From: a bacterium
GTDB lineage: Bacteria > Patescibacteriota > Minisyncoccia > Phycocordibacterales > Phycocordibacteraceae
Length of the DNA: 64,000 nucleotides
Assembly (NCBI GenBank): GCA_037200965.1
Contig: JBBCGK010000001.1
Span: 672,001 to 736,000 of the forward strand
Reading direction: 5' to 3'
A model generated the notes under the pieces. That model searched no databases and was not told where the DNA came from. It saw only the letters and a list, made by a program, of their open reading frames with translations. Positions 1,762 through 59,972 of the stretch are shown here, one piece after another (position 1 is the stretch's first letter; every line of letters begins with the position of its first letter). The position numbers and the translations under genes were made by a program.

Positions 1762-1785
1762 AAAAGTTTTAAAATGCAGGGAGCC

Positions 1786-1814
1786 TTGACGGGAGTCAGG
1801 GCTCTTTGTATCAT
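1786..1814 (+). promoter_or_regulatory. sigma70-like promoter: -35 TTGACG (1786-1791), 17-nt spacer, -10 TATCAT (1809-1814)
   Basis: Near-consensus hexamers with optimal spacing, immediately after the rplE stop and ~80 nt upstream of an ORF with a strong SD. Confidence 0.5.
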
Positions 1815-1895
1815 ATATTCGGATACTTCACATTCTCGGATAGTGACGTTAACGGTATCCACGTCGAGCGTCCGATGGCATCAAGGAGATGTGTC

Positions 1896-2309
1896 ATGCG
1901 GTTTGTCTGTGATCTTGAGGATTTGTTCTGGATGAGTAATAGATACGAGCATACTGCCAGCAATGAGATCAGGCAGGCGCTTCTTGCCGGAAAGGATACG
2001 GACGGAACTCCGCGCTGGACGATTCCGGGGGCTGGAATGTTCAATCTTGCCCAAGTCCTCTGGTCGGGCCAAAACTCGGTTGGCCATGAAGAGGACTGCG
2101 CACGAGACCGTATGTTCACCAGTCTCGAGCTCATGCGTCGACTGGGCCACGCCCGTGCACGCTCGCAGGCTGTGTTTTTTCTCGTCATTCTCCGGAGGAT
2201 GGAGCGCGAGAACAGCGACTCCATCGAAATCAATATCCCGTGGACCCGTGCGAAGACGAGGTGCATGTATGTCAAACGGAAACCAAATATCGAATTCGGT
2301 CTGGTATAA
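1896..2309 (+). CDS. hypothetical protein (~137 aa), no recognisable domain
   Basis: ATG at 1896 is preceded by AAGGAGA with 6-7 nt spacing. It lies downstream of the promoter at 1786 and is followed by a GC-rich hairpin at 2317-2344. Confidence 0.45.
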   Translation: MRFVCDLEDLFWMSNRYEHTASNEIRQALLAGKDTDGTPRWTIPGAGMFNLAQVLWSGQNSVGHEEDCARDRMFTSLELMRRLGHARARSQAVFFLVILRRMERENSDSIEINIPWTRAKTRCMYVKRKPNIEFGLV

Positions 2310-2316
2310 CCGGACA

Positions 2317-2344
2317 GGGCGCGGCGGAACTTTCCGCCGCGCCC
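2317..2344 (+). terminator. GC-rich hairpin (13-bp stem GGGCGCGGCGGAA/TTCCGCCGCGCCC); possible terminator without a clear U-tract
   Basis: Perfect inverted repeat directly after the stop at 2309. Confidence 0.35.
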
Positions 2345-2483
2345 ATCGTGTGTATGGGTCACCATTCTATATCAGGTACATACGAGTGAATTTGACGTAC
2401 TAAGTTATACATACCTTTTTTACGAATTAGTCCTGCAAGTGCTAATTTCTGGCAGCAGAATTGTTCCAATATCCTAAAGGAAA

Positions 2484-2511
2484 CCCCGCAAAGCTTGGTT
2501 GCTTTGCGGGG
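2484..2511 (-). terminator. putative intrinsic terminator of the minus-strand two-gene operon (11-bp stem CCCCGCAAAGC/GCTTTGCGGGG, loop TTGGTT)
   Basis: Hairpin ~45 nt downstream (minus-strand sense) of the stop at 2557, followed on the minus strand by UUUCCUUU. Confidence 0.5.
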
Positions 2512-2556
2512 CTCGACCGGAGGTCGATTTTTCAAACAAGGCTTAGTATGTCCGGT

Positions 2557-3348
2557 TCAGGTTTTGGGGTCGATGCTCATCGCGCGCGGTATCGATTTCC
2601 GTTGCCAGTTGTCGATTTTTCGCCTATCAGAACTCCTGCCGATTATGTATAAGACGAGTGAGATGATGCATACGGCCACGCCCGGGCCGAAGGAACCGAT
2701 GTCCAAAGCCTCCCCGGCCCACACACACAGGGCAAGGTATATGAAGCCCGTAGCACCGAGCACGTAGCTGACAGCCGTTAAACCGTTGCTCTCGCTCTCT
2801 TTGCGCCGATACGAGGTTAACAGGGATTCGGCGATCGGGAGTTCGCTTCCCGGTCCTTCATCCCACGCGGCAAGAGGATATACCCGGCCATCGTGAGCTC
2901 GGCCCACGAGCAGGCTCGGCCCGCTCGTGCCGAATGCGCCGGACTCATACTTGGGATACTCGGGAAGAGACTGACTGATCCAGACCTCGATGTCGGCGAA
3001 GCAGTCCAGCCAATTTACCCATTCCAGACCTTCGAGTACTTTGCGGGGGAATTTTTGCCCGTACCATGCTCGATAGGTCGTGCTGTAGGCATAACCATGG
3101 TACGTGTTCACAGTGCGCACTTTGCGGACACACTGCCACCCTTTCTGAGCCGAGAATTTCCCGGGAAGAGAGCATCTCCACTGGCTCAGGGAATTGGGGT
3201 CGAAGGGTTCGAGAAGCGGAACATGCCTACGAATTTCTTCGATCCGGTTAAGCCGAGGCAGCGCCATGAGTGCGTTCCTCGCATCCGCGTTCAGCGTCCG
3301 TCCGTAGGCGGCGACTGCTTCGATTCTTCGGGATTGGTATTCAGCCAT
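2557..3348 (-). CDS. hypothetical protein (~263 aa) with a C-terminal pair of transmembrane helices; no recognisable domain
   Basis: Internal ATG (MAEYQ...) is preceded by AAGGAGGA and overlaps the upstream stop as TGATG, indicating translational coupling. A hydrophobic hairpin (LTAVSYVLGATGFIYLALCVWAG...GVAVCIISLVLYIIG) lies near the C-terminus. Confidence 0.6.
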   Translation of the reverse strand: MAEYQSRRIEAVAAYGRTLNADARNALMALPRLNRIEEIRRHVPLLEPFDPNSLSQWRCSLPGKFSAQKGWQCVRKVRTVNTYHGYAYSTTYRAWYGQKFPRKVLEGLEWVNWLDCFADIEVWISQSLPEYPKYESGAFGTSGPSLLVGRAHDGRVYPLAAWDEGPGSELPIAESLLTSYRRKESESNGLTAVSYVLGATGFIYLALCVWAGEALDIGSFGPGVAVCIISLVLYIIGRSSDRRKIDNWQRKSIPRAMSIDPKT

Positions 3349-3956
3349 CACACGTCCTCCTTGCTCGGAGCCGCGACGAACGCGACCCAGTTGTGCCACG
3401 AGATTTCGGTCGGGACGGAGCCCTGCGAATTCTTGAGGCTGCAGAGGGAGGAATAGAAGTAGTTGATGAGGCCGGCCGGATTGCCGTTGAGCGGTTCCGT
3501 GACGAACGCCACGAAGCTGCCGTCGGGTATGCGCGGGTCGTGCCCGAGATCGTCCGCGAGCCGCGGGCGCTCTGCGAACAATGCGTCTCGATACTCGACC
3601 GGTGCGGGAACGAGGCTGGCCTTCTGGCCGTATTCCTCGATCTGCCCGGGCCTGAGCCGACCGTTTTTGCCCGAATCGCCGAAGCGGACGAGCATGAGGG
3701 TTTTGTCCTCACCGCCGATCGCGATCCTCACCGCGCAGGCCTTGCCGCCTTTCGGCGGGTCGATCCGCGCCGTGGTCGCGATCTCGCTATAGAGCCCGGA
3801 GAGCTCTGCGAGAACACGCTCAAGCCTGCTGCTATGCGCGGGCTTGACCACCGCGGCGAGCAGCTCATTCAGGTCTGCGCCGGTTTGCCCGCGAACGAGC
3901 TCGCCGATCTGACCGAGCGCCCCGAAGAGCACCGTGGCCGTGACAGGTTTTGGCAT
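3348..3956 (-). CDS. hypothetical protein (202 aa), no recognisable domain; first gene of the coupled pair
   Basis: Start ATG is preceded by GAAAGGAAG. Its stop overlaps the start of the downstream gene by 1 nt (ATGA-type overlap). Confidence 0.6.
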   Translation of the reverse strand: MPKPVTATVLFGALGQIGELVRGQTGADLNELLAAVVKPAHSSRLERVLAELSGLYSEIATTARIDPPKGGKACAVRIAIGGEDKTLMLVRFGDSGKNGRLRPGQIEEYGQKASLVPAPVEYRDALFAERPRLADDLGHDPRIPDGSFVAFVTEPLNGNPAGLINYFYSSLCSLKNSQGSVPTEISWHNWVAFVAAPSKEDV

Positions 3957-4191
3957 GACACTTCCTTTCTATGAACCCCTCACTCCTTAGCGAAGCCCCA
4001 GGTTCAACAGCCTTACCTCCACCCGATTGTGGCGGTTTCAGCGCGCAACAGCCCACTTTAGTGAGCCCCTGAGCGCTGAAACCGCCCCTAGCCTTGTTTT
4101 CAAGGGACGTATCTATCTAAGAGTGTATACTATATATCATATCTTGTCAAGTTTTCCGTAATGGTTCAATACCTTGGATGATTCCAGGGTA

Positions 4192-4220
4192 TTGACAGAT
4201 AATACTGTATGTGCTAACGT
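4192..4220 (+). promoter_or_regulatory. sigma70-like promoter: TTGACA, 17-nt spacer, TAACGT; sits in an AT-rich divergent intergenic region
   Basis: Consensus -35 with 17-nt spacing, ~50 nt upstream of the 4273 ORF. The same AT-rich region lies upstream of the minus-strand operon starting at 3956. Confidence 0.4.
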
Positions 4221-4272
4221 TACTTAAGCGTTCGGGCCGCTCTTTTCAGCTCGGAACCAATGGAGGAACATC

Positions 4273-4668
4273 ATGAACAAGATTTATCTGGCTATCATGG
4301 CCGTCATTTCCCTCTCCGGCATCGCCCTGGCCTTCAGCCCCGAGGCGGTGTTCGAGAGCGCTTCCCGGGTTGACCCGGGCGGCACCCTGTCGTTCGCGAA
4401 CTTCTCCTTCTGGACGTGCGTCTGCATCGGGGGCGTCGTTTTCTTCTTCTCCCGTCGCGGATCACAAGGAAAAGAAATCGCGAGGATCGGCTTGCTTCTC
4501 GGAGCCGCGGCCGCGTGCCTTGCGCTCATGTCGCTCACTCACTACTTCGCGTACTGGCATCAGGGCCTCGCGACGATGCTGGGCATCATCTTCTTCGTCT
4601 CCCCGCTGCTCGGCATCGCGATCGCGCTGTCCGACCGACAGCAGACATCGGTTCCGAACGGAGGCTGA
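4273..4668 (+). CDS. small integral membrane protein (131 aa, ~4 TM)
   Basis: GGAGGAACATC-ATG ribosome-binding site; hydrophobic segments throughout. Confidence 0.55.
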   Translation: MNKIYLAIMAVISLSGIALAFSPEAVFESASRVDPGGTLSFANFSFWTCVCIGGVVFFFSRRGSQGKEIARIGLLLGAAAACLALMSLTHYFAYWHQGLATMLGIIFFVSPLLGIAIALSDRQQTSVPNGG

Positions 4669-4779
4669 AGCCTCCGGTCAAGGACTCGGTTCGCACGCAG
4701 GTACGGCCCCACGCAATTCGGCGTGGGGTCTTTTGGATATATTCGACGCCGCCGGATATATATATAGTGTCCTTCCCGT

Positions 4780-5463
4780 TCGAGATATCGGCTGGTACGA
4801 TCAAGGATCCGGCACGTCCTCGGCTTGTGCAATGTCATCAAGCCGTAGTTGCGCTTGAACCAGTCCTCAATCGCAACACCTTCCAAACCCTCGGCGCGGT
4901 GTCTTCCGGCGAAGACACTTGCGAGGCTGGTGATTGAGAAGGCAGGTCACGCGGTCAGCCTGTCGCTGGGACAGCGCTCCGAGTTCCATGTCCTCGGGAA
5001 AGAACCGGCGCAGCTGTTCTCGCATGCACCCCGCTCCCAGGGATGATGGGGACGGGCGAAGTATACCCGGGCATTGGTATCGCGCTCAATGAACTGCCAG
5101 AGCGTGAACCCGGTACCACGATCGTACGTGATGGTATGTGCAGGAAGATCAGGAAGCGCTCCTCGCGCTTCCTGGTGCACCGTGTTCGTTTCGTCGTCAG
5201 ACACGAGCCGCGCCCGCAAGGAACCCGCCTCTTTCGGTCAACACGGGCCAGAAACCTTGCACGGTCGCGTCCGACCGCGGTATGGTCTCGTCGGATATGA
5301 TGCGTCCCTCTTCGGTGATCTGTTCGGGCGGTCAGCGCGCAGAAGCGCGGACAGAAACACCCGCTCGTCGCGTGTCAAGTGATGATGCGTTGAAGGCCCG
5401 AATGATGGATACCATTCGGGCTTGAAGACAGAAGCATTGCGTTTCAAGCTCGGATTTAAGCTA
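4780..5463 (-). pseudogene. decayed IS30-family insertion sequence; the transposase is frameshifted and carries an internal deletion of roughly 300 bp
   Basis: Fragments HHHLTRDERVFLSALLR, ITYDRGTGFTLWQFIERDTNARVYFARPHHPWERG and HKPRTCRILDRTS match the N-terminal, DDE and C-terminal regions of the intact IS30 transposase at 57934-58866, in different frames. The left IR-like sequence GCTTAAATCCGAGCTTGAAACGCAA at 5437-5463 matches the IR of the intact copy. Confidence 0.6.
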
Positions 5464-5616
5464 TGATTTAGCGTTGACGCGGGTTGAACCCCGGGCAAAG
5501 CAGGCGCGGACCTCGTTCTCATCCATTTTCGCGAAGTTCGTGATTTCGGTAAAGTTGTTTAGGCCGTCTGACGAAAGATTATCCCGCTTGGCCGCTCGAC
5601 CAAGCAGGGCTCCTGT

Positions 5617-5645
5617 TTGACGCCCCGTAACCTATTTGATACAGT
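5617..5645 (+). promoter_or_regulatory. sigma70-like promoter: TTGACG, 17-nt spacer, TACAGT; immediately upstream of rpsN
   Basis: Same -35 hexamer and spacing as the promoter at 1786. It is positioned to transcribe rpsN-rpsH-rplF..., which is now separated from rplE by the insertion. Confidence 0.45.
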
Positions 5646-5674
5646 GTCCTGAAGCTCCGCGGAGCTATTTTTGT

Positions 5675-5944
5675 ATGGCTAAAACCTCCCAGCTTGCCCG
5701 GTACGCCAAGAAGGCGAAACTGGTCAAAAAGTACGCCGCCAAGCGCGCGGCTCTTAAGGCTGCCGGTGACTCTGAGGGCCTCCAGAAGCTCCCGCGGAAC
5801 TCCTCCCCGGTTCGTTTGAAGAGCCGCTGCGCCGTTTCCGGCCGCTCCCGCGGGTATCTCCGGGCGTTCGGCCTCTCCCGCATCCAGTTCCGCGAGATGG
5901 CGAGGGAAGGGAAGATTCCGGGCGTAAAGAAGGCGTCGTGGTAA
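5675..5944 (+). CDS. rpsN: 30S ribosomal protein S14 (long, non-zinc form)
   Basis: [20 protein letters not shown]...[51 protein letters not shown] is a canonical S14; the upstream in-frame extension of the ORF is rejected. Confidence 0.9.
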
Positions 5945-9625: not shown

Positions 9626-9642
9626 AAACTCTACCTATCGTC

Positions 9643-9670
9643 AAACAGCCGGAGCGTGCTCCGGCTGTTT
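9643..9670 (+). terminator. putative secY terminator hairpin (13-bp perfect stem AAACAGCCGGAGC/GCTCCGGCTGTTT)
   Basis: Perfect inverted repeat 18 nt after the secY stop, ending in UUU. Confidence 0.5.
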
Positions 9671-9695
9671 GACATTGAGAGCGAATCGTTATATT
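9669..9695 (+). promoter_or_regulatory. sigma70-like promoter: TTGACA, 15-nt spacer, TATATT; overlaps the end of the secY terminator
   Basis: Consensus -35 with an AT-rich -10, ~35 nt upstream of the ORF starting at 9728. Confidence 0.4.
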
Positions 9696-9727
9696 TTTGC
9701 CGCAGATACCAAGTTTGCGAGGTTCCC

Positions 9728-10117
9728 ATGCTCTCCCTGCTCCAACTGTTCGGGTTCGGCGCAAGACCGAAAAAGCCCGTACCGTCTCCTTTGCCCCAAC
9801 ATAGCCGGGATGCGGTCTCACTTCCTCGGGTGCTCGAAGAAGCGCGTCGGTCGTGCCTGAACGATGACGGCACGATCAGTGTGAAGAAGCTCCGTTCGAT
9901 ATTTCCCGTGCTCTCGCCTTTTTATATCGTCTTCAACGAAAAAGGAAAGGCACAGGCACAAAGAGAGGGGGTAGTCTACAACCGACCGAACCTGTCGAGT
10001 GTGTTCGCAAGCCCGGATTCGGGCATGCCGGTGGTGTGCGGTTACCTGTGCGTTGTCATTGAACGCACGCCGGATTACATGCTGGTCGACCGCGAATTCA
10101 ATCTCAGGCTGAGATAA
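9728..10117 (+). CDS. hypothetical protein (~129 aa)
   Basis: ORF beginning at the internal Met (MLSLLQLFGFG...), preceded by GAGG. It lies between the promoter at 9669 and the terminator at 10151. Confidence 0.35.
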   Translation: MLSLLQLFGFGARPKKPVPSPLPQHSRDAVSLPRVLEEARRSCLNDDGTISVKKLRSIFPVLSPFYIVFNEKGKAQAQREGVVYNRPNLSSVFASPDSGMPVVCGYLCVVIERTPDYMLVDREFNLRLR

Positions 10118-10150
10118 GCGTTATCGGTTCTCAGGTATCGTTCGAAAGTC

Positions 10151-10187
10151 CGCGGGCCAGCCATTCGGCTGGCCCTTGTTTGTTTTT
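10151..10187 (+). terminator. rho-independent terminator (stem GGGCCAGCC/GGCTGGCCC, loop ATTC, then TTGTTTGTTTTT)
   Basis: Canonical GC hairpin followed by a U-tract, located between convergent genes. Confidence 0.7.
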
Positions 10188-10752
10188 ACGCACTAGCGCT
10201 TTGCCAGCCGCGAAAGGCGCCAAGCACCATAGCGACCACAGTCTCCAGATTATTGTGCGTCGTGTTGATAACCGCGTCGAACTGGGTTGTATCGTACACG
10301 TTCACTCCGTAGAGTGCGGAATAGCGCCGCGTCTCGCTTGCCGTTCTGACTTCCGTATTTTCCCTGATCTCGGCAGCTGAGGATCCTTCCTGGCTCACCC
10401 TCCCTTGATCGCGAATATGGGCATAAATTCTTTCGGCCGCGCTTTGCGGATCGACATAGAGGAACACTTTGAATGATTCGGGAATCCAGTGAAAGGCAAG
10501 CCGGGAGTCTATGACGAGCTTCTCCTTCCCGTTCATGTTTTTCAGGAGTTCGTCCACTCCGTGATCGACATCGTTGCGCTCTTCAAGCGAAAGATTCATC
10601 GCCTCGATGGAAAGGCCGCGCTCCGCGGCTATCTGGCGGAACAGGTCGCCCGAGGAGAAATGTTCGTACCCGAGTGCGGCGGCGACCGCTTTGGCCGTGG
10701 AAGATTTACCGCTACCGATAGAACCCGCGATCGTGATGATTTGAGGCTTCAC
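10186..10752 (-). CDS. cmk: cytidylate kinase
   Basis: MKPQIITIAGSIGSGKSSTAKAVAAALGYEHFSSGDLFR: P-loop plus a CMP-kinase N-terminus. Confidence 0.8.
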   Translation of the reverse strand: MKPQIITIAGSIGSGKSSTAKAVAAALGYEHFSSGDLFRQIAAERGLSIEAMNLSLEERNDVDHGVDELLKNMNGKEKLVIDSRLAFHWIPESFKVFLYVDPQSAAERIYAHIRDQGRVSQEGSSAAEIRENTEVRTASETRRYSALYGVNVYDTTQFDAVINTTHNNLETVVAMVLGAFRGWQSASA

Positions 10753-10800
10753 GTTTCCGTGATTATAGCCGCACCAAGCCTTTTTTGCTACACTCCCCGT

Positions 10801-14633: not shown

Positions 14634-16022
14634 ATGCCGTTTCGCATCACTCCCTATGGCGGAGCCGATTCCGTCACCGGTTCGAACTTTCTGATAGAAG
14701 GAAGCGGCGGCGGGAAGATTCTCGTCGACTGCGGCATCGAGCAGGGGAGGGATGTTTCGGAGGCGGATACGTACGCCCCTTTTCCGTACGATGCGTCCCA
14801 GATAGACGCGCTCGTGATAACGCACGCGCATCTCGATCACGTGGGCCGCTGCCCGAAGCTCGCAAAGGAGGGATTCAGGGGCAGGGTATATATGACGCCG
14901 CCGACGCGCGATCTGGCGGAACTTATCCTTCGCGACAGCGCCGGCATCCTCGCGCAGGAAGCGCAGATGCGGCATCTGCCCCTTCTTTATACCGACGAGG
15001 ACGTGACGCGGTTCTTCTCGCTCGTCGAAACGCTCGAATACCACACGGAGAAAGAAATCGCTCCCGGCCTTTCGGTCTGTCTCCGGAACACCGGCCATAT
15101 CCTCGGCTCCGCAAGCGTCCGGATACGGGATGCGTCGGGCTCCTCCCTCGCCCTTACGGGCGACATCGGCAACTCGCCCTCTCCCTTTCTTCCCGACGCC
15201 GAACCGATTCCGGACGCCGGCGCCCTGCTTATGGAAAGCGTGTACGGCGACCGGCTGCATCCGCACCTTGCCGATCGTGTCGCGGAGCTTCGCGATACCC
15301 TGAAGCGGGCGATAGCGCGGGGAGGAACCATTCTCATCCCTTCGTTCTCGATGGAGCGCACGCAGCTCATGCTCTACGAATTCTCGAACCTCATGGCCGC
15401 GGGAGAGATCCCGAAGATTCCCGTATTCCTCGATTCCCCGCTCGCGATCGGCGTCACCGCCGTATACGAGAAATGGGGAAGTACGTATTTCAAGCAGGAG
15501 GCGAAAGAGGAGCTCGAGCGGGAAGGCAGCATTTTCAATTTCCCGTTTCTCAAGATGACATCCTCGCGCGAGCAGTCGGAGGGAATTGCGGCCGCGCCTG
15601 ACCCGAAGATCATCATCGCGGGGGCGGGCATGAGCCACGGAGGGCGCATAGGGGCGCACGAGGCCCGCTATCTGCCGTTTCCGACGACGACCCTCATCAT
15701 GGTCGGATACCAGGCGCCGGGGACTCCCGGGCGGCTCATGCAGGAAGGCGCTCCTTCCGTGCGGCTCGGGGGCCGGGAGGTGCGCATACGGGCCAAGATA
15801 GAGACCCTGTCAGGCTGGTCGGCGCACGCGGACCGCGACGGGCTCATGAAGTTTGTCGAAGCCTGTCTTCCGGGGACGAAGACGTTTTTCGTCGCGATCG
15901 GGGAGCCTTCCGCCGAGCGTTTCCTCGCCCAGCGCATTCATGACACCTTCAGTGTTCGCACTATCGTACCGGAGACGGGGGAGGGGTGGGAGATAGGGAA
16001 AGATTCGATTCATAGGGTATAG
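14634..16022 (+). CDS. MBL-fold beta-CASP RNA-metabolising hydrolase (RNase J / CPSF-like)
   Basis: HAHLDHVG metallo-beta-lactamase motif, a beta-CASP-like C-terminal half and a late His (SAHADRDGL). Confidence 0.75.
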   Translation: MPFRITPYGGADSVTGSNFLIEGSGGGKILVDCGIEQGRDVSEADTYAPFPYDASQIDALVITHAHLDHVGRCPKLAKEGFRGRVYMTPPTRDLAELILRDSAGILAQEAQMRHLPLLYTDEDVTRFFSLVETLEYHTEKEIAPGLSVCLRNTGHILGSASVRIRDASGSSLALTGDIGNSPSPFLPDAEPIPDAGALLMESVYGDRLHPHLADRVAELRDTLKRAIARGGTILIPSFSMERTQLMLYEFSNLMAAGEIPKIPVFLDSPLAIGVTAVYEKWGSTYFKQEAKEELEREGSIFNFPFLKMTSSREQSEGIAAAPDPKIIIAGAGMSHGGRIGAHEARYLPFPTTTLIMVGYQAPGTPGRLMQEGAPSVRLGGREVRIRAKIETLSGWSAHADRDGLMKFVEACLPGTKTFFVAIGEPSAERFLAQRIHDTFSVRTIVPETGEGWEIGKDSIHRV

Positions 16023-24237: not shown

Positions 24238-25062
24238 TTAGGTTCCGGCAACGGCGCGTATCGAGCGGGAGAGATTCTCGAGAAACCTTCCGCGAGTCGT
24301 ATCTGACAGCCTGGTTACGGAAAGAAAGACACCGCCCTGATCGGTGACTTCCGTAAGGAGGAGGTCGCCCGTCTCCGTGCGGCACGCGTCGACGCGTATG
24401 ATGCCCCGCTTTTGCCTGTCCCAGTCGATAAAGACTTTAGCGAACGCGATATCGCGTTCGCTTGGATCGAATTCTTCCAGTTCCCATCGCTTCCGCGTAT
24501 CGGGCGCATACAATACGTACTGCAGCTTCCCGTCGAGATAATAGAAGGATATCTCGTACGTGAAGTCTATGAAGGGCTGGATGAGATAGTGCCTGGGAGC
24601 GAGCGCGAGCAGTTCGTCCCGCGAAAGCCTCCGCGCGTTTATGCCGCTGAAGCCGTTCTTCGGTTTTATGAAATAATCGCCGCCGTTTGGCAGCTGGCCG
24701 ATATCCCCGACGCGGTCGACGGTCGGAATCACCGGAAACCCGTTCCTGGAAAGCCAAAGCAGGTATCCCTTCCACCCGTCGGAGTCGTCCTGCTCATATT
24801 CGCGGACGTACAGGTCGTCATGTATCGGAAGCCATGGCTTCGCGCGCCACCGCCCGTACCACGGCTCCGGCTTCCCATAGTCTTTCGTGTTCCATGTATT
24901 GCGGATGATGATCGCGTCCGCCGCGTCCTCAAACGGTTCGCAGTCGCGCGGGTGCATGAGCGCTACGTCAAAGTCCCGCCGCAGGAAATCTCTTATGAGC
25001 ATGTCTTCTTCTTCCGCGCCGTTCGTAAGGTCGGTGAGGAAGAGGAGCAGGGGCTTAGCCAT
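24238..25062 (-). CDS. hypothetical protein, ATP-grasp-like
   Basis: GGDYFIKPKNGFSGINARR... resembles an ATP-grasp nucleotide-binding segment; this is a tentative call. Confidence 0.45.
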   Translation of the reverse strand: MAKPLLLFLTDLTNGAEEEDMLIRDFLRRDFDVALMHPRDCEPFEDAADAIIIRNTWNTKDYGKPEPWYGRWRAKPWLPIHDDLYVREYEQDDSDGWKGYLLWLSRNGFPVIPTVDRVGDIGQLPNGGDYFIKPKNGFSGINARRLSRDELLALAPRHYLIQPFIDFTYEISFYYLDGKLQYVLYAPDTRKRWELEEFDPSERDIAFAKVFIDWDRQKRGIIRVDACRTETGDLLLTEVTDQGGVFLSVTRLSDTTRGRFLENLSRSIRAVAGT

Positions 25063-35868: not shown

Positions 35869-36022
35869 TCTAGCGGGATTGGTTATCCCAGGGTTAGAAC
35901 CTCGCTGATGCAAAGAAACTTCTATATTTCCTAAGTGGTAGGCATAATGAGTACACAAAAGCCAATACGTGCCTACAGGGTACCCAGAATTAGGTCGAGA
36001 GGTTAAAACCTCCTCCTACAGA
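35869..36022. repeat. copy 1 of a ~150-bp repeated structured element
   Basis: Shares with copy 2 (38788-38985) the blocks CTAGCGGG, AGAACCTCGCTGAT, ATATTTCCT, a ~50-nt block AATGAGyAyACAAAAGCCAATACGTGCyTAyAGGGTrCCCArAAyTAGG, and GGTTArAACCTCC. It also contains the internal hairpin GTAGGCA...TGCCTAC. Confidence 0.8.
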
Positions 36023-38787: not shown

Positions 38788-38985
38788 CCTAGCGGGTGCT
38801 TTTATGAAACTAGGTGGAATTGGATATCCGAGATAAGAACCTCGCTGATACTAAACAGCTCCTCATATTTCCTTCGTGTAGTGGATGACTGGGTATCAAA
38901 ATGAGCATACAAAAGCCAATACGTGCTTATAGGGTGCCCAAAACTAGGCGGAGGGGTTAGAACCTCCCATATTTTGGTAGTATTA
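38788..38985. repeat. copy 2 of the ~150-bp repeated element
   Basis: See copy 1; ~80 percent identity over the conserved blocks. Confidence 0.8.
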
Positions 38986-40028: not shown

Positions 40029-40154
40029 CCCGCCGGTAGGGGTGGAAGAGAAGTCCGGAATTTCTGAGAAGTTTCTGCAGAAAGTTAGAACCCCCAATCT
40101 GTTAAGACGCGCCAACACGAATGGTTACTTAACTCGGCCTTTCGTGAAATGATG

Positions 40155-40566
40155 TGGAGGTGGGGAGGTTGAACTCCCGTCCGACCTGCGCTTGAGAGCG
40201 AGTCTACGGCGCGTAGTTCCGATTAGGGTTTAAGAGAGGATGCGAGGAAACGGAACGAAACCATTCCCCTCCGATCCCGTTATCTAAGCCGCGGGCCGGG
40301 AGAGCCGCGAACCGATCGCACAGAAGATTCCGCCCGCTGGCCCGGCTGTGCGCACCCGGGACCAGGGACGTCGCTTAGGCGAGGTGAGCCGAAGCTCGAA
40401 CCTTATGCGTAAGCGAACGCGAAGTTCCCTGCGGTAAAGTAAGGAGACTTCACGCCTACAACAGTTTTGTTTGCAGGTAGAGTTTCCCGCCAGATTAAAG
40501 TGATGGGCGGGAGTGCACTGCGCCGCACGTCTCTCAAGGTACAGGCCGTCAAAGCCGGTCACCCCC
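40155..40566 (-). ncRNA. ssrA: tmRNA (ssrA)
   Basis: The minus strand begins GGGGGUGACCGGCUUUGACGG, matching the tmRNA 5' consensus GGGGxUGAxxxGGxUUCGACGG. It ends GGACGGGAGUUCAACCUCCCCACCUCCA, matching E. coli ...GGACGCGGGUUCAACUCCCGCCAGCUCCA. The acceptor stem GGGGGUG/CACCUCC pairs. An internal ORF GCA AAC AAA ... GCA UAA encodes the tag ANKTVVGVKSPYFTAGNFAFAYA. It lies directly downstream of smpB. Confidence 0.7.
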
Positions 40567-44383: not shown

Positions 44384-44455
44384 CCACCCATAGCTCAATG
44401 GTAGAGCGATCGACTTATATTCGATTGGCTCCAGGTTCGAGTCCTGGTGGGTGGA
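44384..44455 (+). tRNA. tRNA-Ile with anticodon UAU (reads AUA)
   Basis: Manually folded: acceptor CCACCCA/TGGGTGG, D-arm GCTC-AATGGTA-GAGC, anticodon stem ATCGA/TCGAT with loop CTTATAT (U33, anticodon TAT, A37), T-arm CCAGG-TTCGAGT-CCTGG, discriminator A. 72 nt. Confidence 0.6.
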
Positions 44456-45280
44456 CTACCGAGGGAATATATCAACGAGTTCGCCCGAACTATAAAAGTC
44501 CGCGGCAAGACCGCCGAAGCTATACGAAACACCGAGAATATCGATGGCCGCGCCGCCTACCTGCGGATTCGCGTTCGGGGTCGAATGCGCGAAGCCGATG
44601 TTGTAAAGCGTCGAGACGACCGCGGGGTTTCCTTCGATAGGGAAGCCCGCCTTCCTCCACTGCGCTTCCACCTCCTTTATATAGAGTCCCGCATAGAGAT
44701 AGCTCCAATAGTGGTCGTGCTGGTCGGTCATGCGCGCGAAGCGTTCGCTTTCTACGTCGGTCGTCCGGAAGTCGAGCGCGTGCCCGAACTCAGGCCCCGG
44801 ATAGTACGGCGAGGCCGGATCCTTCAGATTATTCTCCACTTGGATCGCCGTGTCTTCTTTCATCCCCATCACGCCCCAGGAAAACTGTGTCTGAGAACCC
44901 AGGATCTTGAGCGGATAGAAGAATTGCTTATAAAACTCCCGTTCCGTGAAGAAAAGCCGCAGCTGTTCGGCGACCAAATTCGCGGCGATGAGCCGCGCGG
45001 GAACGCCCGAGTCGGCAGCCGCCCGGTCGAGCGCCGCGGTATCTTTCCGAAGCGCCGCCTCGAGCACCTGCCATTCTTCGGTCTTCTGCCAGGGCGTGCC
45101 ACGCGGATCGCTAGGCGCGAAGTCGGTCGATGTCGCGGAACCGATGAACGCTTCGCGCTGGAGGTCGACGATGCCGCTCGTGTTGGTGAGTCCGAACCGG
45201 ACCGCGAAGTATCCGACGACGAGGAAGAAGCCGATCGCGGCGAATATATAAATGACGATCGAGACGACTTTCTTAAGCAT
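44456..45280 (-). CDS. hypothetical membrane-anchored protein (274 aa)
   Basis: N-terminal TM (VVSIVIYIFAAIGFFLVVGYFAV) followed by a large soluble domain. Confidence 0.5.
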   Translation of the reverse strand: MLKKVVSIVIYIFAAIGFFLVVGYFAVRFGLTNTSGIVDLQREAFIGSATSTDFAPSDPRGTPWQKTEEWQVLEAALRKDTAALDRAAADSGVPARLIAANLVAEQLRLFFTEREFYKQFFYPLKILGSQTQFSWGVMGMKEDTAIQVENNLKDPASPYYPGPEFGHALDFRTTDVESERFARMTDQHDHYWSYLYAGLYIKEVEAQWRKAGFPIEGNPAVVSTLYNIGFAHSTPNANPQVGGAAIDILGVSYSFGGLAADFYSSGELVDIFPR

Positions 45281-53217: not shown

Positions 53218-53925
53218 CTACGCTGTCTTCCTGAAGGTTTGGTGAGGCCCTCCGTCCTCCACGCGGTATTCGTTCACCGCCTCGTGCGCAAGCCGCGTCG
53301 GTTCCGGGAGGCGGTGCTTTCGGACGCAGTTCCGTACGAGGTCGAGCGATTCCTCGAGCGTGATGAGGTGGCCGGGGGAGATGAACATCGGCTTCACCGC
53401 CCGCTTGGTGCGAAGCGCCGCGCCGATGATCTCGGCCGGGTCAGTCCGGTCGTGAAGGTATGAGACCGAGCCTGCTTCGGTGCCGGGCTCCTCATATACG
53501 CCCGTGAGGACGCTTTTGGCGCAGCCGACCGTGGGGAGGTTGAGCGCAAGGCCGAGGTGTGTCGCGATGCCGAGCCTTCTTGGGTGCGCGATGCCGACGC
53601 CGTCAACGAGTATCACGTCGGGCTTCGTATCCAGTTTCTCCCATGCCTTAAGGAGCATCGGAATCTCACGGAAGGAAAGAAGGCCCGGAATATAGGGGAA
53701 GGGAATCGTGTCCTTCACTACGCTGTGCGCGACCAGCCTTAGGCTCGGGTATTCGAGCACCACAAACCCGGCAAAGCCTTCCTTGGCGAAGCGGTTCATC
53801 GATACGTCGCAGCCGCCGATGAGCTTCACTTCTTTCGTTAAGGGTATAAGCCGCACTTCCTCGCGGAGCTTCTTCTGGAGCGTTATCGCGTCCTTGGGAG
53901 AGAGATTCCAGTCGTGGGCGATCAT
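53218..53925 (-). CDS. nfi: endonuclease V
   Basis: Blocks FAGFVVLEY...GGCDVS...LVDGVGIAHPRRLGIATHLGL typical of Nfi. Confidence 0.8.
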   Translation of the reverse strand: MIAHDWNLSPKDAITLQKKLREEVRLIPLTKEVKLIGGCDVSMNRFAKEGFAGFVVLEYPSLRLVAHSVVKDTIPFPYIPGLLSFREIPMLLKAWEKLDTKPDVILVDGVGIAHPRRLGIATHLGLALNLPTVGCAKSVLTGVYEEPGTEAGSVSYLHDRTDPAEIIGAALRTKRAVKPMFISPGHLITLEESLDLVRNCVRKHRLPEPTRLAHEAVNEYRVEDGGPHQTFRKTA

Positions 53926-57883: not shown

Positions 57884-58876
57884 CCGGGCTTGAATCCGCT
57901 CCTGAAACGCAACACCTGACGTAGGCTCGGTGGATGAGCCATCACCACCTTTCGCGCGGCGAGCGGGTCGCGCTTGCTGCGTTTCTCCGGACAGGAAAGA
58001 GCCGGGCCGAATGCGCCCGTCTTCTTGGCGTCCACCGCTCGACCATCTCGCGGGAACTGCGGCGCGGCGGTACCGAATACAAGGCGGTCGCCGCAGACAA
58101 GGAAGCCGCACGGCTGCGGAGAGAATCAAAACAACGAGCGCGGAAGATCGAGAACGACCATTCACTCGAACGAGAAATCGTTCGACTCCTGAAGAAGGGA
58201 CACTCTCCCGAACAGGTATCAGAAGAGGTGCGGTTCGTCTCGGACGACGCCATATACGATTGGATTGAACGTTCCCGAAAAGATCTCGCGGTACTCCTGC
58301 CCCAGCGCGGCAAGGTGCGCCGCCGGTACGGGAAGAATACGGGCGCGGTCCAAGGATGGACGAAATCCGTACGCAGTATCGCAGAGCGACCGAAGGCGGC
58401 GAACGACCGCTCCCGCATCGGCGACTGGGAAGGAGATACGGTCGCCGGACGGGATCGCGCCCGTCTGCTCGTGCATGTCGACCGGAAGAGCCGGTTCATC
58501 CTGGCCACGATCACGGCAAACGGGACTGCCGATACGATCCATGCCGCTGCGGGAGCCTCGTTCAAGGGACTTCCCGTTCGAACCATCACGTATGACCGCG
58601 GCAGCGAGTTCGCTCTCTGGCGCATGATTGAGCGCGATACCGGCGCAACCGTGTACTTCGCGAACGCGCATCATCCGTGGGAACGGGGCACGAGCGAGAA
58701 CTCGAACGGCCTCCTGCGGCGGTTCTTTCCGAAAGGAACGCCGATCGGCGAGAAGCTCCAGCGGGACGTTGACCGGGCCGTGCGGCTCATCAATCATCGG
58801 CCGAGGAAATGTCTCGGCTGGAAGACGCCCTGCCGCGTGTTTGGCCGCTGTTGCGTTTCAGGCTAGGATTCAAGCC
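57884..58876 (+). mobile_element. intact IS30-family insertion sequence (~990 bp) with ~30-bp imperfect terminal inverted repeats
   Basis: Left IR GGGCTTGAATCCGCTCCTGAAACGCAACAC at 57886-57915; right IR (reverse complement TGGCTTGAATCCTAGCCTGAAACGCAACAG) at 58845-58874. A single transposase ORF lies between them, and its stop falls inside the right IR. Confidence 0.75.
57934..58866 (+). CDS. IS30-family DDE transposase
   Basis: 310 aa; N-terminal HTH (LGVHRSTISRELRRG) and DDE region (GDWEGDTV ... TITYDRGSEF ... HPWERGTSENSNGLLRRFFPKGT). Confidence 0.85.
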   Translation: MSHHHLSRGERVALAAFLRTGKSRAECARLLGVHRSTISRELRRGGTEYKAVAADKEAARLRRESKQRARKIENDHSLEREIVRLLKKGHSPEQVSEEVRFVSDDAIYDWIERSRKDLAVLLPQRGKVRRRYGKNTGAVQGWTKSVRSIAERPKAANDRSRIGDWEGDTVAGRDRARLLVHVDRKSRFILATITANGTADTIHAAAGASFKGLPVRTITYDRGSEFALWRMIERDTGATVYFANAHHPWERGTSENSNGLLRRFFPKGTPIGEKLQRDVDRAVRLINHRPRKCLGWKTPCRVFGRCCVSG

Positions 58877-58943: not shown

Positions 58944-59597
58944 TCAACGAACAGGTACGGAGTTTGGAACCGTAATGGAAGGAAGCCCGTGCGCGGCGAG
59001 CCGGGCATTTTCGAGTTCGAGGAGTTTCGCTCCAAAAGCTGTCGATCGCGCTGAAAGGATAACGTGATAACGGCGACCGCCGTTACGGAGGTCGGCTTTG
59101 GCGCCTTGCCCGGTTCCTATGTACGCATCGAATATTTTATGGGCAATTTTCTCCTGCTCGGGGACAGGAAGCGCGGCTATACGCGCAAGGGATTCGGACG
59201 GCAATACGCCGTTATGCTTTGGTGACTCAAACTCGAGAACGATGGCATGTTCGACTACCGCAAGCTCACCGAGCTTTGCGAGTTCCTGAGAGAAAAGGGT
59301 ATGTTCAACGGCTTTTTGGAAAGCCGCGCCATTGGCACGACTGAAGAAACCTCCCGAGACCGGATAGAATTTATGCGCAAGCAGGAACTGCGCGTCTGTG
59401 TCCAAATCGGCAATTCGATCCGCAAGCTTTTGTATCTCGGACTCAGATACGATTGCGTGACTATGCAGCATCTCAAGCAATCCTGGCACGACATCTAATC
59501 CCTCACCAAAGGAGGGGCGATGGGGAGTCTTTTCAGAAGCCGTAACCGCGCCATGACGACCTGCTCCGGCAGGGAAAATTTCTTCAGGATGTCTCAT
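58944..59597 (-). CDS. hypothetical protein (weak call)
   Basis: 217-aa ORF between the IS30 copy and a solo IS30 IR; no recognisable domain. Confidence 0.3.
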   Translation of the reverse strand: MRHPEEIFPAGAGRHGAVTASEKTPHRPSFGEGLDVVPGLLEMLHSHAIVSESEIQKLADRIADLDTDAQFLLAHKFYPVSGGFFSRANGAAFQKAVEHTLFSQELAKLGELAVVEHAIVLEFESPKHNGVLPSESLARIAALPVPEQEKIAHKIFDAYIGTGQGAKADLRNGGRRYHVILSARSTAFGAKLLELENARLAAHGLPSITVPNSVPVR

Positions 59598-59924: not shown

Positions 59925-59942
59925 CAAGAAGTCAGTTGTTGC

Positions 59943-59972
59943 GTTTCAGGCTCGAATTTAAGGGGAATAGTC
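59943..59972. repeat. solo IS30 terminal-inverted-repeat-like sequence (GTTGTTGCGTTTCAGGCTCGAATTTAAGG)
   Basis: Closely matches the right IR of the intact IS30 copy (GCTGTTGCGTTTCAGGCTAGGATTCAAGCC); no transposase adjacent. Confidence 0.45.

Follow-up and report, generated by a model that had tools for sequence, protein, structure and literature searches.

The window analysed here, 64,000 nt of contig JBBCGK010000001.1 (assembly GCA_037200965.1, positions 672,001 to 736,000), opens on a cluster of ribosomal protein genes in the order rpmC, rpsQ, rplN, rplX and rplE, which resumes after a gap as rpsN-rpsH-rplF-rplR-rpsE-rplO-secY (rpmD, encoding L30, was not found between rpsE and rplO). The gap measures 3913 bp from the rplE stop to the rpsN start, and we consider it likely that the DNA within it is a flexible genomic islet, lodged in an accessory slot that exists lineage-wide at the rplE|rpsN junction of Candidatus Kaiserbacteria. 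The loci nearest to the window carry the annotation Candidatus Kaiserbacteria or Paceibacterota, which belong to the Candidate Phyla Radiation (CPR, or Patescibacteria). Comparison with these relatives shows that rplE|rpsN is a recurrent, lineage-wide variable slot and not a singular break in a conserved operon.

The left flank of the slot is rplE (L5; 1201-1761, + strand; Pfam Ribosomal_L5 and L5_C), predicted to be the final gene of the upstream ribosomal protein transcription unit, and on the right rpsN (S14, 89-aa long form; 5675-5944, +; Pfam Ribosomal_S14) would open the downstream unit. A preliminary description of this DNA, made from the sequence alone, had placed the end of rplE at 1761 and the start of rpsN at 5675 with a gap between them. 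This is correct, and the same DNA is found in three further independent assemblies. Logan contig SRR28211700 (7975 bp) is 100% identical to the window from rplX to rplO and spans both junctions, Logan contig SRR10968228 spans the left junction, and two contigs of GCA_015655515.1 with a 137-bp overlap together span both. All four assemblies, the window included, have the same structure; they represent a single strain, and their few differences are grouped at a contig end. Since independent contigs agree across both junctions, the misassembly against which the preliminary description had advised a check is excluded for practical purposes. The metagenome-assembled genome (MAG) GCA_015655515.1 is indeed broken inside the islet (its contig ends lie near 2921-3057), as might be expected of a contig that is chimeric at one junction. 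Its two contigs nonetheless overlap, the Logan contigs agree with them, and many relatives have the same architecture with other cargo, so that we regard the chance of such an artefact as practically nil.

The rplE|rpsN junction in relatives of the window

The comparison set comprised 80 species-representative genomes and 80 metagenome contigs, giving 160 Kaiserbacteria loci whose RplE is 69-83% identical to that of the window; GTDB representatives and JGI metagenomes, searched for closer relatives, contain no locus whose RplE is more than ~83% identical. All junctions between rpmC and secY were measured, and a junction was called expanded when longer than 200 bp. Of 79 genome loci, 51 have a compact rplE|rpsN (34-117 bp, mode 36) and 28 an expanded one; three of the latter run off their contig, one after >4 kb. 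When only loci with both genes are counted, expansion is seen in 53 of 144 (25 of 76 among the genomes, 28 of 68 among the metagenome contigs), compared with one of 1245 pooled measurements at the other ten junctions (0-1 each; Fisher p = 1.5e-55). Spacers at those other junctions have medians of -8 to 10 nt, against 34-40 nt (mode 36) for the compact rplE|rpsN spacer, and no locus is expanded at adk|map or rplO|secY. The alignment with relatives that the preliminary description had proposed thus finds the same site in use, whereas the same gene content is not found there, the cargo of the relatives being different.

The sequences that border the slot suggest that it lies at a transcription boundary. 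Directly 5′ of rpsN in the window is a predicted promoter, TTGACG-N17-TACAGT with an upstream TG (5617-5645, + strand), and then a leader extending to 5674, in which a hairpin (AGCTCCGCGGAGCT, 5653-5666) is followed by a U-rich tract that runs to the ATG without a Shine-Dalgarno (SD) sequence; promoter and leader together form the right boundary of the slot. A motif of the form TTGACN-N16-18-TANNNT that ends 28-34 nt before the rpsN ATG is present in 132 of 145 loci, as opposed to 1.1% of random 75-nt windows, and most of the exceptions have an extra structured element in the leader. Compact loci read ...cgTTGACtcgggcgtaaaacgcTGATATTCT...ACGCTCCTCGGAGCTTTATTTTTTATG, with the -35 hexamer within the last rplE codons and the -10 hexamer over the stop codon, and continue with a 4-5-bp hairpin, a U-run and the rpsN start, again without an SD sequence. 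In occupied loci the same promoter and leader remain directly 5′ of rpsN, whatever precedes them. The leader hairpin, mostly GCUC-YUCG-GAGC with 4-5 bp, and its U-tail occur in 130 of 130 loci. At the other edge, a terminator-like hairpin with a T-run lies no more than 110 nt past the rplE stop in 35 of the 65 occupied loci, compared with 7% of control windows.

Because rpsN has a conserved predicted promoter and leader of its own and rplE is often followed by a predicted terminator, we infer that the Kaiserbacteria spc cluster is divided into two transcription units, with rplE|rpsN as their border; an insertion past the rplE stop and 5′ of the rpsN promoter would then be non-polar. The earlier idea that a single conserved operon had been split is not supported in view of the predicted rpsN promoters and the terminator-like sites past rplE in occupied loci. 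To judge by predicted signals, the contiguous rplE and rpsN without internal promoter or terminator that characterise a single spc operon are not what is found in Kaiserbacteria.

We also note that the rpsN leader resembles a terminator placed 3′ of a promoter (5617-5674 in the window; L006-L165 in relatives, whose loci are designated by L and a number). RNAalifold predicted no consensus structure for it; by pair counting, 94% of cells pair, with little covariation. The leader might serve in attenuation, in 5′ stabilisation or in autoregulation. In some loci an extra structured element of ~65-75 nt, ACUUCC-CAGCGAGCGAGG-variable stem-CCGAGCGAGCGCAGGAAG, is placed after the leader U-run and before the ATG. 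It is present in L017 (8578-8649), L009, L037, L055 and L118, and possibly in L084 and L149. Its apical stem covaries and its internal loops are conserved; the L017 copy folds at -45 kcal/mol (z -4.1), and an Rfam search with that copy returned only chance miRNA matches and no family. The element is a candidate ribosomal protein leader or miniature mobile element.

The contents of the slot are diverse. An all-against-all comparison of the open reading frames (ORFs) from 65 occupied loci gave many small unrelated families, and Pfam matches were obtained for only ~20 of 86 non-redundant candidate ORFs. A PaaX_M/Cas2-like gene (~195 aa) is present in 12 loci, in all of them on the - strand and so antisense to the ribosomal protein genes; a DUF5678 gene paired with an aspartyl (retropepsin-like) protease gene occupies four loci, ParE with a small upstream gene three, and an rve transposase one. 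Other occupants are PemK/MazF, UPF0150/HicB-like, NYN, CHC2 zinc-ribbon and methyltransferase genes, and EamA together with a histidine kinase. Occupancy changes at least 27 times by parsimony on a neighbour-joining tree of six ribosomal proteins from 127 taxa (48 of them occupied), in which the window belongs to a basal group whose members are as a rule occupied.

Two sets of loci bear on how the cargo moves. The PaaX-like gene exists as two or three divergent alleles whose distribution runs against host phylogeny: the proteins of L088 and of L099, L118 or L125 are 94-95% identical where the ribosomal proteins are ~86% identical, whereas those of L099 or L118 and of L139 are only 45% identical in spite of 93% identity between the ribosomal proteins. 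At the DNA level L088 and L099 share a block of 85-97% identity that ends at the edges of the cargo gene, and the flanking ribosomal protein genes are 75-84% identical. The second case is the pair L076 (8610-9670) and L135 (6610-7675), which are 92-100% identical in DNA through rplX-rplE and rpsN-rpsH. Their cargo is of equal length (~1.03 kb) and unalignable, and encodes distantly related ~330-aa proteins without a Pfam match. The alignment breaks off just beyond the promoter of the cargo itself and resumes exactly at the rpsN -35 hexamer, and the two loci differ by compensatory changes in the rplE terminator hairpin. The pair is a case of cassette replacement between conserved flanks, which is the signature of a flexible islet, and the cargo of the relatives is exchanged horizontally.

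Genes and signals of the window islet

Within 1762-5674, DNA similarity to relatives is restricted to 5615-5672, and the right edge of the foreign DNA is therefore best placed at ~5614. The foreign segment would run from 1762 to that point, and the final ~60 bp (5615-5674) would be the native rpsN promoter and leader. The preliminary description had taken all of 1762-5674 as an insertion; its view of the segment as accessory, lineage-specific DNA stands, except for these last ~60 bp. With four self-contained genes (orfA to orfD) and a 611-bp IS30 relic, the islet is the largest complete example among the slots surveyed.

Directly past the rplE stop lies a hairpin with a 17-bp stem and a T-rich tail (1774-1811, +; fold -27.4 kcal/mol, z -7.3), which is probably the rplE terminator. 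It overlaps TTGACG-N17-TATCAT (1786-1814, +; 10 of 12 matches in the promoter scan), described earlier as a consensus-like promoter. The site is present as described, but it sits in the hairpin and is at least equally likely to belong to the rplE terminator. We rejected the idea that it is a duplicate of the rpsN promoter, to which its similarity is weak, again in view of its position within the hairpin.

The first gene, orfA (1896-2309, +; 137 aa; SD AAGGAG), starts 135 bp past rplE in the same orientation and is among the gene calls of both the NCBI and the Logan assemblies. A search of 5.8 billion proteins returned only orfA itself. Jackhmmer found two distant homologues, L161:632-1072(-) at 8e-31 and L047:8605-9129(+) at 2e-16, and both come from the rplE|rpsN slots of other Kaiserbacteria, where they have opposite orientations. 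These homologues show that orfA represents a genuine gene family that resides in the slot. A minus-strand ORF at 1811-2365 was considered as the true gene in its place and rejected, having atypical base composition at its three codon positions (GC1/2/3), whereas orfA has homologues. A GC-rich hairpin lies directly 3′ of orfA (2317-2344, +; -29.8 kcal/mol, z -5.1), and the gap between the convergent orfA and orfB contains two adjacent hairpins (2484-2527; folds of -30.5 kcal/mol on the + and -31.5 kcal/mol on the - strand), with a T-run after each on the respective strand. Together these hairpins look like a bidirectional terminator.

As the preliminary description had recognised, a convergent, translationally coupled two-gene operon without recognisable domains follows. 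Its leading gene is orfC (3348-3956, -; 202 aa, soluble). The second gene, orfB (2557-3348, -; 263 aa), encodes a protein with two hydrophobic helices at its C terminus; its ATG shares bases with the orfC stop (TGATG) and is preceded by a GGAGGA SD motif, an arrangement that indicates translational coupling. A promoter-like site for the pair, TTGACA-N17-TACACT, is at 4122-4150 (-; 10 of 12 matches). The ~160-nt 5′ untranslated region of orfC contains an imperfect palindrome with 27-nt arms (4031-4086, -; fold of the whole region -74.4 kcal/mol, z -5.5), which has no second copy in the window and no Rfam match, and which could be an operator or attenuator. The orphan ORF and the small membrane protein that had also been noticed in the gap are likewise real features, the former being orfA and the latter orfD (4273-4668, +; 131 aa; SD GGAGGA), with ~4 transmembrane helices. 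An intrinsic terminator is predicted after orfD (4705-4730, +; 10-bp stem with eight GC pairs, -21.4 kcal/mol, then a T-run).

Searches with these genes were almost uniformly negative. In 5.8 billion clustered proteins orfB and orfD matched only themselves, and an exhaustive phmmer search with orfC of 1.84 billion representatives returned orfC and two long PAN-repeat proteins. The PAN-domain matches were rejected as spurious, since their score adds up over numerous repeats that each match weakly. Pfam, NCBIfam, PADLOC and PHROGs gave nothing meaningful for any of the four cargo ORFs (none at E<=1 in the case of PADLOC); a sequence search of the PDB found no match for orfB or orfC; plasmid and phage sequences contained no match to orfB (tblastn) or to the islet DNA (blastn), nor viral contigs to orfC or orfB; and Rfam returned only chance miRNA matches on the islet. 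Single-sequence AlphaFold2 models were unusable, with predicted local distance difference test (pLDDT) scores of 34.6 for orfB and 35.6 for orfC.

As toxin-antitoxin (TA)-type genes occupy the slot elsewhere and the orfC-orfB pair has a coupled, palindrome-led architecture, one may guess that it is a two-component, membrane-anchored toxin/immunity- or defence-type module, a doubtful assignment. The pair is like type II TA and small defence modules in being coupled, in having its own promoter and in its palindrome-bearing leader, and MazF, ParE, HicB-like, NYN and Cas2-like genes occupy the same slot in relatives. It differs from them in that neither protein resembles any TA or defence family by sequence or profile, both are larger (202 and 263 aa), and one is membrane-anchored.

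The composition of the islet is mixed. GC content is 0.50-0.56 across 1600-2800 and 0.60-0.64 in the flanks. At third codon positions (GC3) it is 0.63 in orfA, 0.66 in orfB and 0.82 in both orfC and orfD, against 0.78-0.88 in the ribosomal protein genes. The GC and codon comparison recommended in the preliminary description therefore sets orfA and orfB below the ribosomal protein genes, but orfC and orfD are host-like. The cargo ORFs follow the order GC3>GC1>GC2 expected of genes, and further evidence that they are genes comes from canonical SD motifs, promoter-like and terminator-like signals of their own, and gene calls in other assemblies. A strict SD motif precedes three of the four cargo genes and two of 40 host ORFs in the window (p = 0.003; host usage was estimated from a GC3-filtered ORF heuristic within the window), and none of the window's ribosomal protein genes has one. 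This suggests that the translation signals of the cargo are foreign to the habits of the host.

The right part of the islet holds a decayed IS30-family element of 611 bp (4852-5462, -), which retains both terminal inverted repeats and a transposase spread over three frames, and has lost ~380 bp internally. A 90-aa fragment matches NF033563 (transpos_IS30) at 5.7e-15 with 55.7 bits, under the 80-bit cutoff, as befits a remnant and not an intact gene. An intact IS30 of 990 bp lies elsewhere in the window (57887-58876). The relic is ~67% identical to it in DNA (blastn) and 54-60% in protein (tblastn, three frames), and its ends match the inverted repeats of the resident element at 81-88%; in view of the low DNA and protein identities the relic is not a recent copy of this resident. 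By reading, the relic's flanks (4849-4851 and 5463-5465) show no clear 2-3-bp duplication, though so short a signal carries little weight in a decayed element. A decayed IS30 copy had been reported to abut the rpsN promoter; the relic is there, but its outer inverted repeat ends 154 bp before the promoter at 5617-5645. The spacer between them (5463-5614) has no similarity to any relative, and its hairpin (5583-5608, -13.1 kcal/mol, z -1.25) is not significant. The element is like the IS30 family in its terminal inverted repeats and DDE transposase remnants, and differs from it in being non-functional, with three frames and ~380 bp deleted; it accounts for itself alone.

The intact copy (transposase 57934-58866; 28-nt inverted repeats, 89% complementary) has a third matching IS30 inverted-repeat end ~1.1 kb beyond it (59937-59962, in the region 59931-59964). 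Between the element and this third end is a 217-aa ORF (58944-59597, -) with a very low GC3 of 0.49, and the arrangement may be an IS30 with a passenger gene, or the third end a solo inverted repeat.

How the slot is filled

We envisage that the upstream unit would end at rplE, usually with an intrinsic terminator where room allows, and that a second unit would begin at rpsN, driven by a conserved sigma-70-type promoter of its own and with a short SD-less leader. Insertions between the rplE stop and the rpsN promoter would interrupt no operon and hence be tolerated, and the highly conserved flanks would offer a grip for recombination. For both reasons small self-contained cassettes (TA-like nucleases, membrane proteins, ORFans and an occasional insertion sequence (IS)) would be gained, swapped and lost often. 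The window would be an unusually large, layered case, with three autonomous units (orfA; orfC-orfB; orfD) and an old IS30 insertion that later decayed. We infer, in addition, that the promoters and terminators function as such, that the islet was acquired stepwise and that it is dispensable. The best-supported account of the slot as a whole is its renewal by horizontal exchange, at least sometimes via recombination in the conserved edges.

Several points weigh against this account. The ten control junctions are intra-operon, and secY|adk, the sole further junction tested that looks like a boundary, varies as well, with a median spacer of 48 bp and more than 200 bp in 20 of 85 loci; the slot is therefore not unique, and the hotspot may partly mirror where insertions are tolerated. 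The high identity between L088 and L099 stops at the cargo edges and does not reach the ribosomal protein genes, and homologous recombination mediated by the flanks is thus not sufficient for every transfer. The promoters and terminators are predicted from consensus matches or folds, conservation of the leader hairpin is chiefly one of sequence, with limited covariation, and the ORF lists of the relatives come from a longest-ORF heuristic and not from a gene caller. For the window islet itself the evidence of horizontal origin is indirect, consisting of the lack of homologues for orfB-orfD, the SD excess and the GC differences. With no relative closer than ~83% RplE identity, the islet may be old and vertically inherited, and the host-like GC3 of orfC and orfD would suit long residence.

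The preliminary description had supposed that a foreign cargo in this position implied either strong selection for the cargo or IS-mediated delivery. Neither is needed, since the junction is a recurrent slot at a transcription boundary. That the whole 3.9 kb came as an IS30 composite or as the cargo of a one-ended transposition, the IS decaying later, is in any case very unlikely. The relic at the right end of the islet does have both terminal inverted repeats, an intact IS30 is present in the window, and an rve-domain transposase occupies the slot of one other species. The relic is nevertheless a lone, internally deleted copy at one end, only ~67% identical to the resident IS, and its inverted repeats enclose just its own 611 bp, leaving the cargo outside. 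No second copy or matching inverted repeat is found at the left end near 1762, and a composite transposon carrying the cargo was rejected for want of such bracketing. Promoter-like and terminator-like signals accompany each of the four cargo genes separately, their GC3 is heterogeneous at 0.63-0.82, and ~50 other occupied loci are without any transposase. An integrase-dependent genomic island or prophage remnant was likewise rejected: no islet ORF matches an integrase or recombinase in Pfam, NCBIfam or PHROG, no flanking direct repeats (att) were found around the islet, there is no tRNA nearby, and neither the islet DNA against phages nor orfB and orfC against viral contigs gave any similarity.

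An unrecognised mechanism might instead target the site actively, with attachment or homing directed by the conserved rpsN promoter/leader or by the 3′ end of rplE. The repeated reuse of the junction, the sharp cargo edges beside a conserved promoter, and the behaviour of the PaaX_M/Cas2-like gene (constant in orientation in 12 of 12 loci, and 85-97% identical in DNA between species in a block that ends at the gene edges, with flanks at ~75-84%) would all fit. We nevertheless think it unlikely, since neither the window cargo nor most other cargos have an integrase, recombinase or homing-endonuclease domain, flanking direct repeats are lacking, the cargo families are numerous and unrelated, and the variability of secY|adk fits tolerance better than targeting. 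There is also a more specific version, in which the junction is an actively targeted but integrase-free cassette site of CPR bacteria, keyed to the rpsN promoter and leader, that small genes would enter from other species always in one position and orientation; the PaaX_M/Cas2-like gene, >90% identical in DNA between hosts with ribosomal protein genes at ~78%, would be an example, and orfC-orfB would be a new membrane-anchored toxin/immunity or defence module kept since its deletion endangers essential neighbours. To this version we give equally little credence. Selection of the cargo's position for co-expression or co-regulation with ribosomal proteins, for example of a ribosome-associated factor, would find some encouragement in orfA, which is co-oriented with rplE and close enough that read-through would couple it to ribosomal protein transcription, and whose family recurs in the slot of two other species. 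A strong hairpin separates rplE from orfA, however, the L161 homologue is in the opposite orientation, and orfC-orfB is antisense to the cluster with a predicted promoter and terminator of its own. The cargo of the relatives is mostly selfish-type modules and ORFans, not translation factors, and the slot is empty in 63% of them. Recruitment to ribosomal protein expression is weakly supported for orfA only, and as a general explanation we hold it to be highly improbable.

A flexible islet in a tolerant, recombining slot, the reading we prefer, has parallels elsewhere. Chromosomal hotspots of horizontal gene transfer, or flexible genomic islands, are high-turnover intervals between conserved core genes, and the groups of Rocha and of Rodriguez-Valera have reportedly described additive and replacement islands of this kind. 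The rplE|rpsN slot is like them in its fixed flanks (144 loci) and variable, mostly unrelated content, in the conflict between cargo and host phylogeny and the L076/L135 cassette replacement, and in its IS remnants and TA-type genes. It differs in lying within a block that is a single spc operon in most bacteria, in the very small size of its cargo (0.5-4 kb, with no tRNA or integrase), and in its hosts, which are CPR bacteria with ~1-Mb genomes. The shared flanks, the variation in content above that of neighbouring intervals, and the horizontal exchange, which is seen in the relatives, make the slot a new example of a core-gene-flanked hotspot, a known kind of locus at an unusual site.

Insertions into the ribosomal protein super-cluster have been reported in Gammaproteobacteria and Bacilli, with transposable elements and recombination proposed as drivers (PMC8046335). 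The four insertions detailed there are old and clade-defining, three of them between operons (rpoBC|str and str|S10) and one at rplL/rsmC in the rpoBC operon, and the inserted genes are housekeeping genes (tusDCB, bfd-bfr, nrdHEF and ilv-leu). They are similar to the present case in that a few genes are placed within a conserved translation-gene cluster. The Kaiserbacteria insertions, on the other hand, are numerous and recent, are located at rplE|rpsN, and bring in selfish-type or ORFan cargo. Our literature searches turned up neither a recurrent slot at rplE|rpsN nor a promoter specific to rpsN as a described feature of CPR bacteria.

No part of bacterial genomes is regarded as more syntenic or safer than the ribosomal protein block, whose genes are standard markers for CPR phylogeny and MAG quality control. 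The Kaiserbacteria block nonetheless holds a junction with variable, horizontally exchanged cargo in over a third of species. Such cargo breaks assemblies, as in the NCBI MAG of this strain, which is relevant to binning and to marker concatenation. The junction also points to a lineage-specific split of the spc operon, in which the SD-less rpsN leader could be regulatory. The slot is probably a neutral landing site for the engineering of uncultivated ~1-Mb genomes, and provides a compact natural sample of the selfish and ORFan genes that circulate among CPR bacteria.

Other features of the window

The secY|adk interval of the window (9626-10800) contains a 129-aa ORF (9728-10117, +) and a cytidylate-kinase-like P-loop gene (10186-10752, -), at a lowered GC content of 0.53-0.56. 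Many host genes have a -10-like box (TATAGT, TAGAGT or TATACT) only ~7-12 nt 5′ of their ATG, for example the ORFs at 14634, 16032, 24238-25062(-), 33431, 53218-53925(-), 60092 and 63143, which suggests that leaderless or very short-leader mRNAs are widespread in the host organism. A 71-nt direct repeat occurs at 35943-36013 and 38897-38967; the copies are 83% identical and lie 2954 bp apart. The tmRNA gene is at 40152-40566 (Rfam, 95 bits), with the predicted tag peptide GPAGGIFCAIGSRLSRPAA, and a tRNA-Ile gene with anticodon TAT is at 44384-44456.

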